A DNA stretch of 64,000 nt from Escherichia coli (GCF_003334765.1 NZ_QOWT01000004.1), one strand, 5' to 3'; counted from the first letter of the stretch, positions 1,689 through 11,202 are shown. A program made the numbers and translations. Notes: generated by a model from the letters alone, not told the origin.

Positions 1689-2762
1689 TTAGTGACCAAT
1701 CATTGGCGCTTGTGGAATTAAGCGTCGGTACAATTCCTCCGGCACCGGGCTTTGCCATACTCCCGCATACATTGCGTAACCAATCACCGCAAACATAATC
1801 CCCAGAACCAGTAGCGTCATTAACCAGCCAGACAACGCAAAGGCTTTTTTATTTGCCGCAGGTTTTTGCAGTGAAAAGGTCAATGTTGAGGCTACCGGAC
1901 ATGACTCTACGCAAGTCATACAGCCGGTACATTCCACTGTTCGTACCTGAATTAATTTATCGACCGGGATCCGTGATGGGCAATTTTTTGCGCATTTGCC
2001 ACAGTCGATACAACTTTCGGCATTGCGACGAATCTTAAACGGCGACAATAGCGAAACCACGCCCATCAGCGCGCCATATGGGCAAAGATAACGACACCAG
2101 GCATGGCGAATAAACAGGCTGGCAATCAGCAAAACGGTCACGCTGATTAATGTCGCGGTCCCCATATGACGAAAGAAATCGAGCATTTTAACGTCCATCA
2201 CCACGCTGTAGGGCGACAACATAAAATAGTGAATCGCCTGAGCGGGCATCAATAACGCGATATAGATAAAAAAACTCAACAGCAAATACTTCACGCCGCG
2301 CAGAGGAATATCCAGCCAGCGGGGAAGGACACATTGCCGACCAAACAGTTTGTTACCGAGATCGCCGATTAATTCAGAAAGCGTACCAACCGGGCATAAC
2401 CATGAGCAAAAGGCCTTTTTGAGTAATAGACTGATGACGATAAAAGCGACCAATAACAGCATCGCGGCGGCGTGGACGGACGGTAACTGACCTGTTACAA
2501 GGCTATATTTCAGATTCATCAGCCCGGCAATCGGTAGCCAGCCTTCGATACCTCCCGGTCTGGCGACAAATGTCGTGCTACTTGCCGTTTCGTAATAGCG
2601 CACCCAATACCAGAACGTGATGGCAATATAAATATTCATTGCCAACAGTAATAATTGCGTCGCTTTACGCCAGGTCGTGGCATTACGCCAGTCATTCCAC
2701 GGTAATTTGCCGCCCGTCGTGCCTGGCCGCCGCTGCCAGCGGGTTCTTTTATTCTCTGCCAT
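1689..2762 (-). CDS. yccM: Polyferredoxin-like inner membrane protein YccM (4Fe-4S clusters)
   Basis: 357-aa ORF with multiple TM segments and CxxCxxCxxxCP ferredoxin motifs (CIDCGKCAKNCP, CTGCMTCVESCP). Confidence 0.85.
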   Translation of the reverse strand: MAENKRTRWQRRPGTTGGKLPWNDWRNATTWRKATQLLLLAMNIYIAITFWYWVRYYETASSTTFVARPGGIEGWLPIAGLMNLKYSLVTGQLPSVHAAAMLLLVAFIVISLLLKKAFCSWLCPVGTLSELIGDLGNKLFGRQCVLPRWLDIPLRGVKYLLLSFFIYIALLMPAQAIHYFMLSPYSVVMDVKMLDFFRHMGTATLISVTVLLIASLFIRHAWCRYLCPYGALMGVVSLLSPFKIRRNAESCIDCGKCAKNCPSRIPVDKLIQVRTVECTGCMTCVESCPVASTLTFSLQKPAANKKAFALSGWLMTLLVLGIMFAVIGYAMYAGVWQSPVPEELYRRLIPQAPMIGH

Positions 2763-2833
2763 GATTTTGCCAGTCCGTTAAGTTGTATACCAAATGCCAC
2801 TATTCTAGTTGTTCTTAACTGGCTGATATTGAT

Positions 2834-5578
2834 TCAAATCGCGTTCAGGTCTTTCTTATGCAACCATGCTTCCAGAGCGGCAACACTGCGTGTAATTTCT
2901 TCGTGTGGAAGGGGGGCAGATAATGGCTGCTGCTCCAGTTGTGCGCATAGCTGGCTGGCGATATGCATTCCCAGACTCGAGCAACTGCTTTTTAGCTGAT
3001 GCGCGGCACGCTTTATTTTCTCGCTATCCTGACTGGCGCGGGCAATGTCGATTTCATCGAGAAGCGGCAGGGCATGTTGTGTAAATAATACCAGCCATTC
3101 GTGGATCTTCTCCGTCCCCATTAACTGAGCATCTTCATTGAGTTGCGATACATCCAGCGATTGATCATTATTGACTTGCAGTTGGAGATAGTGCGCCAGT
3201 AACTGACCGAGCACTTCACGCGGCACCGGTTTAGGGATAATCCCGCGGAATAATGAACTGGTACGCTGGCGCAGCGTTTCGTCAATGACATGGGCGCTAA
3301 AGCCAATCAAAACCAGCGACGGATATTGCTGTGCCAGTTGTCGGGCAAGCGTAATGCCGTCGATATCCGGCAGATCAAAATCCACCAGTGCGGCAGCAAA
3401 CGGTTCGCTATTTTGCAGTGTCTCTAAAGCCTGCGCGGCATTGCCAACAGCAACAATCTGTGCACCACTGGTTTTCAGCATCTCAATGGTAATTCGCTGG
3501 GTTAGCGGGTTATCTTCAATTAACAGCAAACGTAAACCGTCAAGACGCACCGCCTGATTGACTGTTTTTGGCACGGGTGCCGTGGCAACACGTAACGGCA
3601 AGCGTAAACAAAAACAGCTTCCAACCTCCGGCGTGCTGGTGGCGCTCAGTTCGCCGCCCATCGCCTGGGCCAGACGGCTACTGATAGTCAGTCCCAGCCC
3701 GGTGCCGCCGCGTTTGCCGCTTACCTGCACAAATGGCTGGAAGATTTCTGCCAGTTTCGCGGGATCAATACCGCAGCCGCTGTCTTCCACTTCGACCAGC
3801 CATTGCTCGCCATCAGTGCGACTACGCAGGATAATGTACCCTTCGTCAGTAAAACGCAGGGCGTTGCTCAACAGGTTGGTTATAACCTGACGAATACGTC
3901 GTGGATCGCCCATTAACGCGCACGGCATATCATCGGCAATTGCCGTTGCCAGGCGAATCGGGCGACCTTTCACCCGTCCGCTCATTAATTGCAGGGTACT
4001 TTCCAGCAGCGGGCGCGGTTCAAAGGGCTCATCGCTGACCGAAACATTCTTGCCACCTGCTTCGATAGCGGAATAATCGAGAATATCGTTGAGGATGGTC
4101 AGCAACGATTCACCAGAGTCAGTAATTGCCCGCAAATCATCACGCTGGGCGTTAAGTGCGGGGTTATCTGCCAGCAGTTGAGCAGTGCCGAGAATACCGT
4201 ACAGCGGTGTGCGGATCTCATGGCTCATCGCCGCCAGAAACGCCGATTTTGCCTGGCTGGCTTTTTCTGCTTCCGCCCGTGCCTGTCGGTGTTCTATCAC
4301 CAGTTCCTGCAATTCAGCTGTACGCGCTTTGACCTGCGCCGCCAGCTGTTCGCGGTGGCGATTCAGTGCATGAACATTGCTGCGAAACGCATCCATCAGC
4401 CGCCCGATGGTATCCAGCTCCCGTACGCCAGCGGTTTCCGGGAAAGGGGAGTCAATATCACCGTCCAGCAGCCGTTGCAGCGCCTGCGTTTGTTCGGCAA
4501 GTGGACGCGTGACTGAGCGATAAACCACGCGCCAGAGGATCAGAATCAGTGCGCAAAGTGAAACCATCCCCAGCAATAACAGGCTGTATTGCCCGCGTGC
4601 ACTCGCTTTTTCCAGATGCGCCAGTCCGTGCTGATTACGCAGCTCAATGGTGTCGACCAGCTGACTGACTTCGCTACTAAACTGCGCGAACTGGGCGATG
4701 TTATTTTGTGCGAGAGTTTGTAGGTGATTGCTGATTTCACTGTCCTGCTGATACAGCGCCAGCAAATCGCTATATTGGCTAACGGTAGTTAACGTTGTTG
4801 CGACCTGCGCACGAACACCCGGATCTTCAATGCGTATTTGCCGACGTTGCAGAATTTTCACCGCATTATTGAGCTGCTTTTCCAGCGTTGGTGCATTTTT
4901 CTGGATCTGCTCCAGCCCCAGATTCATCACCATTTGCTGCACCCGCAGAGCGCTAAGGCGCAGTTCATTCATCTGGTTAACATACTCAAGATCGATATCA
5001 ATCAGCCGATCGAGTGCACTTTCAGCAGCCTGACGCTGATCTTGTTCGATCAAATCGTAAATCCCGGCCTGGGTCGCTCCAGCGGAAGTTGTCGCATTAT
5101 TCGCCTGACCTTGCGCCAGGCGTGCGATCTCATCGGCGGCAGCGACTATCTGCTGACTGAGTTGCTGTTGTTGCTGGCGCAGTTGCAAACGCTGCCCCAC
5201 CAGTTCCCCTTGCTGACGTAACGAACGGGAGATCTCCTGCTCCTGTTGTTCAATAGCGGTGGTATCAAAACCTTGTTCCCGTAACGCTTGCAGCAACGCA
5301 TTAATCTTCAGGCTTTGTGCGGTGAGCATTCGCCCCTGCGCCTGCCACATCTTTTCGTTATCGGCACTGGTCAGGTTCTGCGCGGCGAAAAGTTCCCAGG
5401 CGCTGGCTTCGCTCAACTGGCGCGCCATATTCATGGTAGGAATCAATGCCTGAGTGTTGTCTTTTTCCACCTGGCTGATAAAGCGCAGGTTGTACCATCC
5501 CACCAGGGTACTGGTCAGGGTTAACAGCGCCATCAGGGCAAAGCCCATCCAGAGTCTTCGGGTCAGGGTTAAATTCAC
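2834..5578 (-). CDS. torS: TMAO sensor hybrid histidine kinase TorS
   Basis: 914-aa ORF with N-terminal TM/periplasmic region, HisKA motif (MSHEIRTPL), HATPase, receiver domain and C-terminal HPt; adjacent to torT/torR. Confidence 0.95.
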
Positions 5579-5660
5579 GGTCGGTGCACTTTAGGTGAAA
5601 AAGGTTGAGTCGCAAAGCGGAATGCATCTAGCATAAAGCCTTATTATTGATGAGGCTATC

Positions 5661-6689
5661 ATGCGCGTACTGCTATTTTTACTTCTTTCCCTTTTCATGT
5701 TGCCGGCATTTTCGGCTGATAACCTGTTGCGCTGGCATGATGCGCAGCATTTCACGGTGCAAGCCTCTACGCCGCTTAAAGCCAAACGCGCATGGAAACT
5801 GTGCGCGCTTTATCCCAGCCTGAAAGATTCATATTGGTTATCGTTGAACTATGGTATGCAGGAGGCTGCTCGCCGCTACGGTGTGGATTTAAAAGTGCTG
5901 GAGGCAGGCGGCTACAGCCAGTTGGCTACCCAGCAAGCACAAATCGACCAGTGTAAACAGTGGGGCGCAGAGGCCATTTTGCTCGGTAGTAGCACGACCT
6001 CATTTCCCGACCTGCAAAAGCAGGTAGCAAGTCTGCCGGTGATCGAACTGGTAAATGCTATTGATGCTCCCCAGGTGAAAAGCCGCGTTGGTGTGCCCTG
6101 GTTTCAGATGGGCTATCAACCGGGGCGATATCTGGTGCAATGGGCGCACGGTAAACCACTGAATGTGCTGTTGATGCCCGGACCCGATAACGCCGGGGGC
6201 AGTAAGGAGATGGTCGAGGGTTTTCGCGCAGCCATTGCCGGAAGCCCGGTGCGTATTGTTGATATTGCGCTTGGTGATAACGATATTGAAATCCAGCGTA
6301 ACCTGTTGCAGGAGATGCTGGAACGCCATCCAGAAATCGACGTCGTTGCCGGAACGGCCATTGCGGCAGAGGCGGCAATGGGGGAAGGGCGTAACCTGAA
6401 AACGCCGCTTACCGTGGTGTCGTTTTATCTTTCACATCAGGTGTATCGCGGGCTGAAGCGGGGAAGAGTGATTATGGCTGCCAGCGATCAAATGGTCTGG
6501 CAGGGGGAACTGGCGGTTGAGCAGGCCATCAGGCAATTACAGGGGCAATCGGTTTCTGATAATGTCAGCCCACCGATTTTAGTTCTGACGCCGAAAAATG
6601 CCGACCGTGAACATATTCGCCGCTCGCTGTCACCAGGGGGATTTCGTCCGGTCTATTTTTATCAGCACACATCAGCGGCTAAGAAATAA
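5661..6689 (+). CDS. torT: Periplasmic TMAO-binding protein TorT
   Basis: 342-aa ORF with signal peptide and periplasmic-binding-protein fold features; divergent from torS. Confidence 0.9.
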   Translation: MRVLLFLLLSLFMLPAFSADNLLRWHDAQHFTVQASTPLKAKRAWKLCALYPSLKDSYWLSLNYGMQEAARRYGVDLKVLEAGGYSQLATQQAQIDQCKQWGAEAILLGSSTTSFPDLQKQVASLPVIELVNAIDAPQVKSRVGVPWFQMGYQPGRYLVQWAHGKPLNVLLMPGPDNAGGSKEMVEGFRAAIAGSPVRIVDIALGDNDIEIQRNLLQEMLERHPEIDVVAGTAIAAEAAMGEGRNLKTPLTVVSFYLSHQVYRGLKRGRVIMAASDQMVWQGELAVEQAIRQLQGQSVSDNVSPPILVLTPKNADREHIRRSLSPGGFRPVYFYQHTSAAKK

Positions 6690-7354
6690 CCTTCACCATG
6701 TTGCGTCACCAGTAAATCCGCGCTGAGTTTATGACGTAAACGACGAATTAACACATCGACGGTGCGCAGGTCAGGGTTTTCCACCCGACGCGCAGAAAGC
6801 ATACGTAGCAGACGTTCACGGCTGAGAATTTCGCCCGGATTCGTCACAAATGCCACCAACATTTCATACTCTGCGCGGGTCAGTTTAATCGGCTCGCCAT
6901 CCCGCTCCAGCGTATGGCGCGACACATTCAGGCAATAACCGGCAAAGCGATAGCAGTTGTCCTGAGTGTGCGGTTGAGCTTGTCGCGCGAGGTCGATTCG
7001 CCAGAGCAGATTTTTCACCCGTACTACCAGTTCGCGCAGTTCCAGCGGTTTGGTGACGTAATCGTCTGCGCCCATTTCCAGCCCAACAATACGGTCAATC
7101 CGATCGCTGCGTCCGGTAACCAGAATAATCCCCACCGTTGAGCGTTCTCGCAGGGCGCGGGTTAACATCAGGCCATTTTCATCGGGTAAGTTGATATCCA
7201 GCAGAATTAAATCTACCGACTGATTCTGCATAATTTCCCGTAGCCCGGCACCGCTCGCCGTAACGGAAACGGTATACCCCTCCTGAGTGAAGTAGGATTG
7301 TAATCGCGCCTGGGTAACCGGCTCATCTTCAACAATAACAATGTGATGTGGCAT
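6662..7354 (-). CDS. torR: Response regulator TorR (OmpR family)
   Basis: 230-aa ORF with receiver domain (VEDEPVT...DINLPDENG) and winged-helix C-terminus; 3' end overlaps torT 3' end by 28 nt. Confidence 0.95.
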   Translation of the reverse strand: MPHHIVIVEDEPVTQARLQSYFTQEGYTVSVTASGAGLREIMQNQSVDLILLDINLPDENGLMLTRALRERSTVGIILVTGRSDRIDRIVGLEMGADDYVTKPLELRELVVRVKNLLWRIDLARQAQPHTQDNCYRFAGYCLNVSRHTLERDGEPIKLTRAEYEMLVAFVTNPGEILSRERLLRMLSARRVENPDLRTVDVLIRRLRHKLSADLLVTQHGEGYFLAADVC

Positions 7355-7372
7355 CAGAGGGTTTTACTCATT

Positions 7373-7435
7373 CTGTTCATATCTGTTCATATTCTGCCGT
7401 AAGCCGTTCATCCTGACCAGTGCCGCTGTTCATAT
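7373..7435. promoter_or_regulatory. Four decameric tor boxes (CTGTTCATAT x3 plus CCGTTCATCC), TorR binding sites of the torCAD/torR control region
   Basis: Direct repeats read at 7373-7382, 7383-7392, 7404-7413 and 7426-7435 in the torR-torC intergenic region. Confidence 0.85.
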
Positions 7436-7483
7436 TTGCTCATTAAGATCGCTTCACTAAACCATAATTCTACAGGGGTTATT

Positions 7484-8656
7484 ATGCGGAAACTCTGGAA
7501 CGCGCTACGCCGACCCAGTGCTCGTTGGTCGGTACTGGCGCTGGTCGCAATTGGGATTGTGATTGGCATTGCGCTGATTGTATTGCCACACGTTGGGATC
7601 AAAGTCACCAGCACAACCGAATTTTGTGTCAGTTGCCACAGTATGCAACCGGTGTATGAAGAATATAAACAGTCGGTGCATTTCCAGAACGCCTCCGGCG
7701 TGCGAGCTGAATGCCATGACTGTCATATCCCGCCGGATATTCCAGGCATGGTGAAGCGCAAACTGGAAGCGAGCAATGATATCTACCAGACCTTTATTGC
7801 TCACTCCATTGATACACCTGAAAAATTCGAAGCCAAACGCGCGGAACTTGCCGAGCGTGAATGGGCGCGAATGAAAGAAAACAACTCGGCAACCTGCCGC
7901 TCCTGCCATAACTACGATGCGATGGATCATGCGAAGCAGCATCCTGAAGCAGCACGTCAGATGAAGGTGGCAGCGAAAGATAATCAATCCTGCATCGACT
8001 GTCATAAAGGTATTGCCCACCAGTTACCGGATATGAGTAGCGGCTTCCGTAAGCAGTTCGATGAGCTGCGCGCCAGTGCTAATGACAGTGGTGACACGCT
8101 GTACTCTATTGATATTAAGCCAATTTATGCGGCGAAAGGCGATAAAGAAGCCTCTGGTTCTCTGCTGCCTGCTTCGGAAGTGAAAGTCCTTAAACGTGAC
8201 GGCGACTGGCTGCAAATTGAAATTACCGGCTGGACGGAAAGCGCCGGACGTCAGCGTGTACTCACCCAATTCCCAGGTAAACGCATCTTTGTTGCCTCGA
8301 TTCGTGGTGATGTGCAGCAGCAGGTAAAAACGCTGGAGAAAACCACCGTTGCCGACACCAATACCGAGTGGAGCAAGTTGCAGGCCACTGCGTGGATGAA
8401 GAAAGGCGACATGGTGAACGATATCAAACCGATCTGGGCTTATGCGGATTCGTTGTACAACGGCACCTGTAACCAGTGCCACGGCGCACCGGAAATCGCC
8501 CACTTTGACGCTAACGGTTGGATCGGCACGCTCAACGGCATGATTGGCTTTACCAGTCTCGATAAACGTGAAGAACGCACCTTGTTGAAATATCTGCAAA
8601 TGAATGCGTCTGACACCGCAGGTAAGGCTCACGGCGATAAGAAGGAAGAAAAATAA
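7484..8656 (+). CDS. torC: Pentahaem c-type cytochrome TorC
   Basis: 390-aa frame from MRKLWNALRR; multiple CxxCH haem-binding motifs (CVSCH, CHDCH, CRSCH, CIDCH, CNQCH); NapC/NirT family. Confidence 0.95.
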   Translation: MRKLWNALRRPSARWSVLALVAIGIVIGIALIVLPHVGIKVTSTTEFCVSCHSMQPVYEEYKQSVHFQNASGVRAECHDCHIPPDIPGMVKRKLEASNDIYQTFIAHSIDTPEKFEAKRAELAEREWARMKENNSATCRSCHNYDAMDHAKQHPEAARQMKVAAKDNQSCIDCHKGIAHQLPDMSSGFRKQFDELRASANDSGDTLYSIDIKPIYAAKGDKEASGSLLPASEVKVLKRDGDWLQIEITGWTESAGRQRVLTQFPGKRIFVASIRGDVQQQVKTLEKTTVADTNTEWSKLQATAWMKKGDMVNDIKPIWAYADSLYNGTCNQCHGAPEIAHFDANGWIGTLNGMIGFTSLDKREERTLLKYLQMNASDTAGKAHGDKKEEK

Positions 8657-11202
8657 TGAACAATAACGATCTCTTTCAGGCATCACGTCGGCGTTTTCTG
8701 GCACAACTCGGCGGCTTAACCGTCGCCGGGATGCTGGGGCCGTCATTGTTAACGCCGCGACGTGCGACTGCGGCGCAAGCGGCGACTGACGCTGTCATCT
8801 CGAAAGAGGGCATTCTTACCGGGTCGCACTGGGGGGCTATCCGCGCGACGGTGAAGGATGGTCGCTTTGTGGCGGCAAAACCGTTCGAACTGGATAAATA
8901 TCCGTCGAAAATGATTGCCGGATTGCCGGATCACGTACACAACGCGGCGCGTATTCGTTATCCGATGGTACGCGTGGACTGGCTGCGTAAGCGCCATCTC
9001 AGCGATACCTCCCAGCGCGGTGATAACCGTTTTGTGCGCGTGAGCTGGGATGAAGCCCTCGACATGTTCTATGAAGAACTGGAACGCGTGCAGAAAACTC
9101 ACGGGCCGAGTGCCTTGCTGACCGCCAGTGGTTGGCAATCGACGGGGATGTTCCATAACGCTTCGGGGATGCTGGCGAAAGCTATTGCCTTGCATGGTAA
9201 TAGCGTTGGTACGGGCGGAGATTACTCTACCGGTGCTGCGCAGGTGATCCTGCCGCGCGTAGTCGGTTCGATGGAAGTGTATGAACAGCAAACCTCCTGG
9301 CCGCTGGTATTGCAGAACAGCAAAACCATTGTGCTGTGGGGCTCCGATTTGCTGAAAAACCAGCAAGCGAACTGGTGGTGCCCGGATCACGATGTTTATG
9401 AATATTACGCGCAGCTAAAAGCGAAAGTCGCCGCCGGTGAAATTGAGGTCATCAGCATCGATCCGGTTGTCACATCCACCCATGAGTATCTGGGGCGCGA
9501 GCATGTGAAGCACATTGCGGTTAACCCGCAAACTGACGTGCCGCTGCAACTGGCGCTGGCACATACGCTGTACAGTGAAAACCTGTACGACAAAAACTTC
9601 CTTGCTAACTACTGTGTGGGTTTTGAGCAGTTCCTGCCGTATCTGCTGGGTGAGAAAGACGGTCAGCCGAAAGATGCCGCATGGGCTGAAAAACTGACCG
9701 GCATTGATGCCGAAACCATTCGTGGGCTGGCGCGGCAGATGGCGGCGAACAGAACGCAAATTATTGCTGGCTGGTGCGTGCAGCGTATGCAGCACGGTGA
9801 ACAGTGGGCGTGGATGATTGTGGTTCTGGCGGCGATGCTGGGGCAAATTGGCCTGCCAGGTGGTGGTTTTGGTTTTGGCTGGCACTACAACGGCGCAGGC
9901 ACGCCGGGGCGTAAAGGCGTTATTCTGAGTGGTTTCTCCGGCTCTACGTCGATTCCGCCTGTTCACGACAACAGTGACTACAAAGGCTACAGCAGCACTA
10001 TTCCGATTGCCCGTTTTATCGATGCGATCCTCGAACCGGGGAAAGTGATCAACTGGAACGGTAAATCGGTAAAACTGCCGCCGCTGAAAATGTGTATTTT
10101 TGCCGGAACTAACCCATTCCATCGCCATCAGCAGATCAACCGCATTATTGAAGGCTTGCGCAAGCTGGAAACGGTTATCGCCATAGATAACCAGTGGACC
10201 TCAACCTGCCGCTTTGCCGATATCGTACTGCCTGCGACCACGCAGTTTGAGCGTAACGATCTCGACCAGTACGGCAATCACTCCAACCGTGGCATTATCG
10301 CCATGAAACAGGTGGTGCCGCCGCAGTTCGAGGCGCGCAACGACTTCGATATTTTCCGCGAGCTGTGCCGTCGCTTTAATCGCGAAGAAGCCTTTACCGA
10401 AGGGCTGGACGAAATGGGCTGGCTGAAACGCATCTGGCAGGAAGGTGTACAGCAAGGCAAAGGACGCGGCGTTCATCTGCCAGCGTTTGATGACTTCTGG
10501 AATAACAAAGAGTACGTCGAGTTTGACCATCCGCAGATGTTTGTTCGCCACCAGGCATTCCGCGAAGATCCGGATCTCGAACCGCTGGGCACGCCGAGTG
10601 GCCTGATTGAGATCTACTCGAAAACTATCGCCGATATGAACTACGACGATTGTCAGGGGCATCCGATGTGGTTTGAGAAAATCGAACGCTCCCACGGTGG
10701 GCCTGGCTCGCAAAAGTATCCGTTGCATCTGCAATCTGTGCATCCGGATTTCCGACTTCACTCGCAGTTATGTGAGTCGGAAACGCTGCGTCAGCAATAT
10801 ACGGTAGCGGGTAAAGAGCCAGTATTCATTAACCCGCAGGATGCCAGCGCGCGCGGTATTCGTAACGGTGATGTGGTACGCGTCTTTAACGCTCGCGGTC
10901 AGGTGTTGGCAGGGGCAGTGGTTTCTGACCGCTATGCACCCGGCGTGGCACGAATTCACGAAGGGGCATGGTACGATCCAGATAAAGGCGGCGAGCCTGG
11001 TGCGCTGTGCAAATACGGTAACCCCAACGTGTTGACCATCGACATCGGTACATCGCAGCTGGCGCAGGCGACCAGTGCGCACACTACGCTGGTGGAAATT
11101 GAGAAGTACAACGGAACAGTGGAGCAGGTGACGGCGTTTAACGGCCCCGTGGAGATGGTGGCGCAGTGCGAATATGTTCCCGCGTCGCAGGTGAAATCAT
11201 GA
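8656..11202 (+). CDS. torA: TMAO reductase TorA (molybdoenzyme, Tat-exported)
   Basis: 848-aa ORF with twin-arginine signal ([11 protein letters not shown]) and molybdopterin oxidoreductase domains. Confidence 0.95.

Follow-up and report, generated by a model that had tools for sequence, protein, structure and literature searches.

Response regulators of the OmpR/PhoB family hold a receiver and a winged-helix domain, and their operators, exemplified by the pho boxes of PhoB and the direct repeats of ArcA, consist of repeats in the same orientation with a period of approximately 10–11 bp. In these operators, the site nearest the promoter takes the place of an absent −35 element. The tor boxes of Escherichia coli, located between torR and torC, are likewise same-orientation repeats, and have been described for strain K-12 (Simon et al. 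1995; Ansaldi et al. 2000; PMC9239176). The published sequence of boxes 1, 2, and 4 is 5'-CTGTTCATAT-3', while that of box 3, which matches at 7/10 positions and is of low affinity, reads 5'-CCGTTCATCC-3'; gel shifts with TorR have been obtained on boxes 1, 2, and 4, whereas the binding to box 3 is thought to depend on box 4 (PMC9239176). The torCAD promoter is bound by TorR-P, but not by ArcA-P or FNR (PMC10845959). For the high-affinity TorR site, the autoregulation of torR, and the expression of torCAD, both PMC10845959 and PMC5294996 refer to Ansaldi et al. 2000.

Convergent overlapping genes, in which each stop codon lies inside the partner gene, represent the closest described counterpart of a second feature of this locus, the overlap between torT and torR. 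A total of 58 convergent overlaps has been reported in E. coli, their origin being ascribed to stop-codon mutation or drift, and phase 123:213 accounts for 18% of those of at least 5 nt (PMC2174442).

The DNA analysed here, a stretch of 64 kb referred to as the window, corresponds to the E. coli cspH-torSTRCAD-cbpAM-rut-put-efe region, where torS(−), torT(+), torR(−), and torCAD(+) follow each other (Table 1). The order and orientation of torT, torR, and torC are identical in 18/18 loci from other genomes. TorT, TorR, TorC, and TorS each score above the curated NCBIfam equivalog cut-off along the entire protein, in agreement with the RefSeq names, and the torT and torR ORFs translate without interruption. 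By megablast, positions 5500–7700 have a counterpart in 5,420 of 5,426 complete E. coli genomes, at 100% identity in many of them, where they are annotated as torS, torT, torR, and torC; across the sequence searches, the locus was counted in 5,412–5,417 of the 5,426 genomes. In the identical E. coli stretch of strain NCTC86, RefSeq places torT at 1662–2690 and torR at 2663–3355 of the locus, equivalent to 5661–6689 and 6662–7354 of the window; since these coordinates map to the same gene ends, the overlap is already part of the public annotation.

Table 1. Features of the tor region, with positions counted from the first nucleotide of the window.
Feature	Position	Strand	Description
torS	2834–5578	−	Hybrid sensor kinase of the TMAO system, listed for context; NCBIfam NF008543 equivalog (1906 bits, cut-off 982) and RefSeq
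torT	5661–6689	+	342 aa, periplasmic TMAO-binding partner of TorS; ORF, translation, RefSeq, and NCBIfam (NF008185 equivalog, 495 bits, cut-off 200; TIGR02955, 438 bits, cut-off 310)
torT/torR overlap	6662–6689	both	Convergent, tail-to-tail coding overlap of torT (+) and torR (−); 28 nt, including both stop codons
torR	6662–7354	−	230 aa, OmpR/PhoB-type response regulator; ORF, translation, RefSeq, and NCBIfam (NF008034 equivalog, 428.7 bits, cut-off 275)
tor box 1	7373–7382	+	CTGTTCATAT, sequence as published; starts 18 nt past the torR start codon
tor box 2	7383–7392	+	CTGTTCATAT; abuts box 1, forming a 10-bp tandem pair
tor box 3	7404–7413	+	CCGTTCATCC; degenerate, 7/10 match; starts 21 bp after the start of box 2
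Non-box conserved segment	7414–7422	+	TGACCAGTG, between boxes 3 and 4; conservation in 15 spacers
tor box 4	7426–7435	+	CTGTTCATAT; starts 22 bp after box 3; ends 8 bp before the −10 hexamer
TAAGAT	7444–7449	+	Likely −10 hexamer of the torCAD promoter; conserved in 12/15 aligned spacers
torC	7484–8656	+	First gene of the box-controlled torCAD operon; NF011606 equivalog (884 bits, cut-off 455) and RefSeq CDS

With respect to domain structure, TorR is covered from end to end by the family models of ArcA, OmpR, and PhoB, comprising a receiver and a winged-helix DNA-binding domain. Its residues 1–121 match the solved TorR receiver domain (1zgz_A), and it also matches the full-length structures of RegX3 and BaeR. 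The TorT structure from Vibrio parahaemolyticus (3o1h_B) aligns to residues 46–332 of the E. coli protein and ends there.

Compared with the published K-12 torR-torC region, the window exhibits the same genes, order, decamers, and 129-bp spacer; no difference was found, and both represent the same locus. A preliminary description of this DNA had named torT, torR, and torC, placed the torT stop (6689) 28 nt inside the 3' end of torR (6662), counted four decamers (three CTGTTCATAT and one CCGTTCATCC) within 63 bp of the torR-torC spacer, taken them for the known tor boxes, and considered the whole to be known biology. The gene identities are borne out by the NCBIfam equivalogs and the RefSeq names, the overlap is exact according to the ORF list, the translations, and the identical RefSeq ends, and every coordinate and count of the decamers is correct, their sequences agreeing in full with PMC9239176. 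As textbook E. coli biology, the locus is indeed already known together with its boxes and annotation, and every public annotation shows the overlap. No evidence contradicting the identity of the tor locus was found, and it is highly probable that this is the regulatory core of the E. coli locus for respiration of trimethylamine N-oxide (TMAO), tor, with the decamers as TorR operators and the overlap as a tolerated placement of stop codons.

All four boxes are contained in the 129 bp that separate the start of torR (7354) from that of torC (7484), where they span 63 bp (7373–7435) in one orientation. The decamer CTGTTCATAT is present in exactly three copies in the 64-kb window (7373, 7383, and 7426), all of them on the + strand, and the relaxed pattern CYGTTCATMY adds CCGTTCATCC at 7404 and two isolated hits. 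The start-to-start distances of 10, 21, and 22 bp are roughly whole helical turns, which, together with the single orientation, is expected of an OmpR/PhoB-type regulator. An alignment of 15 torR-torC spacers from six genera of Enterobacterales reveals that the TTCA core is invariant in all four boxes, that CTGTTCATA in box 1 is invariant in 15/15 spacers, and that the 10/21/22-bp spacing is kept across the six genera. Both the anatomy of the boxes and their conservation are thus direct observations.

Unlike operators of the PhoB/ArcA type, only boxes 1 and 2 are adjacent, while boxes 3 and 4 lie two helical turns from their neighbors. Another difference is that the inter-box segments TGCCGTAAG, between boxes 2 and 3, and TGACCAGTG are conserved yet are not boxes. 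Moreover, a single tor operator serves two divergent promoters with opposite outcomes, as known from the literature. Within TGACCAGTG, the residues G, A, C, C, G, and T at 7415–7418 and 7420–7421 are invariant or at least 90% conserved in the 15 spacers.

Other observations concern the inter-box segments and further box-like sequences. The GACC-GT of TGACCAGTG is better kept than the flanks of box 3 across the 15 spacers and six genera, and TGCCGTAAG is partly conserved. With a small probability, TGACCAGTG could be bound by a factor not yet recognised or make a contact with TorR that has gone unnoticed. Degenerate TorR half-sites in a six-slot array were considered for the inter-box segments and set aside, given that these match the consensus at only 4–5 of 10 positions and are out of register. 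Two candidates for additional degenerate boxes, TTGCTCATTA (7436–7445) and TTTACTCATT (7363–7372), emerged as repeats in the analysis, but neither is conserved outside Escherichia, and they are therefore rejected as a fifth and sixth box. Elsewhere in the window, the tor-box-like decamers CTGTTCATAC (9279–9288, − strand, inside torA) and CTGTTCATCC (22033–22042, + strand, inside rutB) are probably due to chance, because they are isolated and lie within coding sequences.

The number of boxes is not the same in every genome. In Providencia vermicola (5701–5845 of the locus), the spacer is 10 bp longer and holds a third tandem box-like decamer, TTATTCACAT, directly after box 2, and so box number varies between species. 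In E. coli OkiPb01695 (NZ_AP042570.1; 201–318 of the locus), a 43-bp deletion equivalent to positions 7383–7425 of the window removes precisely the segment between the beginning of box 2 and that of box 4, leaving two adjacent boxes beside the −10 hexamer. This deletion looks like the product of recombination or slippage between identical repeats, or else of an assembly error; if real, it constitutes a natural two-box promoter.

Regarding the torCAD promoter, its −10 site has been given as TTGCT(nnnn)AAGAT (PMC10845959). A promoter scan returned no consensus-like sigma-70 −35/−10 pair in the torR-torC spacer, the scan totals being at the level of shuffled sequences. The position of box 4, 8 bp before TAAGAT, and the absence of such a pair are consistent with an activator-dependent promoter, in which box 4 may stand in for the missing −35 as in other OmpR/PhoB-family operators.

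Taken together, the boxes are operator sites of the response regulator TorR, with boxes 1 and 2 acting as a tandem high-affinity site beside the torR start; torCAD is known to be induced by TMAO. Boxes 1 and 2 reportedly cover the torR transcription start and are said to bind TorR whether it is phosphorylated or not, and induction reportedly needs them on the same helical face as boxes 3 and 4. According to the literature, from which the binding order, the autoregulation, and the activation are taken, TorR bound to boxes 1 and 2 would repress torR, and would also help TorR-P to load onto the weaker boxes 3 and 4. Since only 8 bp separate the end of box 4 from the −10 hexamer downstream of it, in a promoter with no recognisable −35, TorR-P bound to this box could recruit RNA polymerase to torCAD. 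Downstream of the promoter, an element responsive to the bis-MGD molybdenum cofactor has been proposed, spanning +1 to beyond +48 of the torC leader (PMC10845959). An Rfam scan of positions 5400–7800 (E ≤ 1) detected no known RNA family in this leader (~7456–7510), including the Moco riboswitch.

On the opposite side of torR, the 28 nt shared with torT encode TorT residues 334–342 and the torT stop on one strand, and on the other TorR residues 222–230, preceded by the third base of Gly-221 and followed by the torR stop. Both ends of the overlap are stop codons, so that ambiguity in the start codons has no effect on it. Ten bases (6662, 6665, and every third base up to 6689) are third codon positions in both genes, which corresponds to phase 123:213 in the notation of PMC2174442. 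The torT stop, TAA in the window, is the complement of the third base of a TorR Gly codon and the first two bases of the Tyr codon, and sits opposite the conserved GEGYFL segment in the C-terminus of TorR, which by analogy would form the last strand of the winged-helix domain. Loss of this stop would extend torT to the next in-frame stop, 15 codons further, and the overlap to 73 nt. Because the TorT chain of 3o1h_B ends at the residue equivalent to 332, the TorT tail encoded in the overlap lies beyond the known fold. At the 3' end of torR (6659–6664, − strand), tandem stops, TGA TAA, are found, the second one codon after the first.

With its 28 nt, the torT/torR overlap is longer than the common 4-nt class of convergent overlaps. 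In the annotated 50 kb around the locus, torT/torR is the sole overlapping pair among nine convergent CDS pairs, the others being 37–256 bp apart; the pair is uncommon, not exceptional.

A shared bidirectional terminator at the overlap was considered and rejected, as folding of the 120 nt downstream of each stop yielded no structure beyond that of shuffled sequences (z = −0.7 and −0.15). A terminator scan returned no terminator-like site at the overlap, and the Rfam scan mentioned above detected no RNA element there. With no terminator-like site beside either stop, both transcripts must enter the partner gene, and they may have some mutual antisense effect.

To compare the overlap across genomes, a TorT scan with one genome per species provided 18 loci from Escherichia, Citrobacter, Providencia, Enterobacter, Edwardsiella, and Serratia, which were combined with the window and its RefSeq copy into 20 loci, and the overlap was measured by extending each gene to its stop. 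The length is exactly 28 nt in 14 loci: besides the window and its RefSeq copy, these are 12 of the 18 fetched loci, all belonging to Escherichia, Citrobacter, Providencia, or Enterobacter ludwigii. The two Serratia loci exhibit overlaps of 21 and 54 nt, Edwardsiella hoshinae one of 4 nt, and the three other Edwardsiella loci a 7-nt gap with no overlap. The 54-nt overlap belongs to Serratia liquefaciens, indicating that an extension such as that expected from the loss of the torT stop is tolerated.

Among the 14 loci with 28 nt, 9 of the 10 shared third positions are variable, while only 4 of the remaining 18 are (Fisher p = 0.001), and the torT stop is always TAA or TAG. Every locus, whatever its phase and whether or not the genes overlap, retains the TorR C-terminus HGEGY[FL]LA[AS][DE]V, and conservation of the TorT tail beyond FRPVY is restricted to the same-phase 28-nt group. 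In this group, a single base change can alter both proteins together: C→Y in TorR accompanies H→Y in TorT, A→S accompanies A→E, and C→R accompanies H→R. Outside E. coli, TorT from the 28-nt genera is 66–76% identical to the E. coli protein. The profile matches reaching or nearing both C-termini, together with the variation on the shared third positions, establish that both frames are real coding sequence through the overlap.

From the comparison, the overlap looks like a tolerated placement of stop codons, and we infer that the TorT tail is probably the passenger and TorR the constrained partner. The torT frame would run into the antisense of the torR 3' end until it meets the TAA, and the last nine residues of TorT, beyond the folded domain, would follow the codons of TorR. 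As the disordered TorT tail follows the constrained C-terminus of TorR, single base changes alter both proteins, and as the third positions face each other, both genes retain synonymous freedom. The conserved length is an automatic consequence of TorR keeping its Gly-Tyr codons, the third base of the Gly codon being a pyrimidine. Against a passenger role, however, the exact 28 nt across four genera, despite the 66–76% identity of TorT, could reflect selection.

Other explanations of both features have to be weighed against these data. The decamers might be chance repeats or the sites of another regulator such as ArcA, the closest paralogue of TorR, which is the second-best family match of TorR and for which ArcA-like motifs have been noted in the torCAD promoter (PMC10845959). 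However, CTGTTCATAT is expected 0.10 times per window and its three exact copies were reached in 0 of 100 dinucleotide-preserving shuffles, the cores and spacing of the boxes are conserved across genera, and the published binding data (the TorR gel shifts on boxes 1, 2, and 4, and the binding of TorR-P, not of ArcA-P or FNR, to the promoter) already contradict this possibility, to which practically no probability can be assigned. The overlap, in turn, would be an artefact if a frame, annotation, or sequencing error had occurred near the 3' ends of torT or torR. For such an error, a general caveat applies and no specific support was found; against it, both ends are the first in-frame stop codons, the profiles reach the last residues (TorR residues 1–230 on a 231-position profile, and TorT residues 1–339 of 342), the RefSeq ends are identical, the same sequence is present in ~5,416 E. 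coli genomes, and other genera carry the same overlap with compensating synonymous changes. An artefact is hence exceedingly improbable, and already refuted as far as sequence data can refute it. A frame error at these gene ends, named in the preliminary description as what would overturn it, did not appear, with the profiles reaching the C-termini and the arrangement shared by thousands of E. coli genomes as well as by other genera.

A regulatory role of the overlap is also improbable, if less so. Here, mRNAs complementary at their 3' ends, or collisions between polymerases, would tie the amounts of TorT and TorR to each other or drive them apart, tuning signaling and torCAD noise. The conservation of length and phase in four genera would fit such a device, as would the lack of an intrinsic-terminator-like site between or just beyond the stops, through which each transcript would enter the other gene, and the sensitivity of torCAD output to very low and variable levels of TorS and TorT (PMC6814406). 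Nevertheless, the overlap is changed or lost in Edwardsiella (7-nt gap and 4 nt) and Serratia (21 and 54 nt), where the gene order and the boxes persist, and the constraint on the TorR protein fully explains its conservation. In addition, any close convergent pair gives 3' antisense transcripts, with or without overlap, and the literature searched yielded no report of such regulation and no paper discussing the torT/torR overlap. A shade less probable still is the proposal that the 28 nt are maintained by pairing of the mRNA 3' ends or by polymerase interference, linking the amounts of TorT and TorR and contributing to stochastic torCAD bet hedging. Were the overlap to couple the expression of both genes, it would bear on this noise-based bet hedging, but nothing found points there. 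Read instead as a tolerated placement of stop codons, the overlap provides a small illustration of how convergent overlaps may be tolerated, with third positions facing each other and one stop fixed by the Gly-Tyr codons of the partner.

Some minor observations concern the database matches of the window. Six of the matches to the tor region lie on records labelled as plasmids, which could be large chromosome-derived plasmids or mislabelled replicons. The window matches strain NCTC86 position for position up to ~35 kb and is out of register beyond that point, where NCTC86 holds frameshifted pgaD and dgcT, plus an IS3 copy.

On the other side of torT, the 82-bp divergent spacer between torS and torT has been reported to be the place where phage HK022 integrates and to hold a shared repressor site for IscR, and a prophage is found there in ~5% of E. 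coli genomes, rewiring the expression of torS (PMC6814406). In the window, this spacer (5579–5660) is without insertion. The torS start in both the ORF list and RefSeq is a GTG at 5578; lacZ fusions, however, identified a downstream ATG as the sole torS start used (PMC6814406). As this ATG is codon 11, at window position 5548 (region 5546–5578, − strand), the annotated TorS is probably 10 residues too long.
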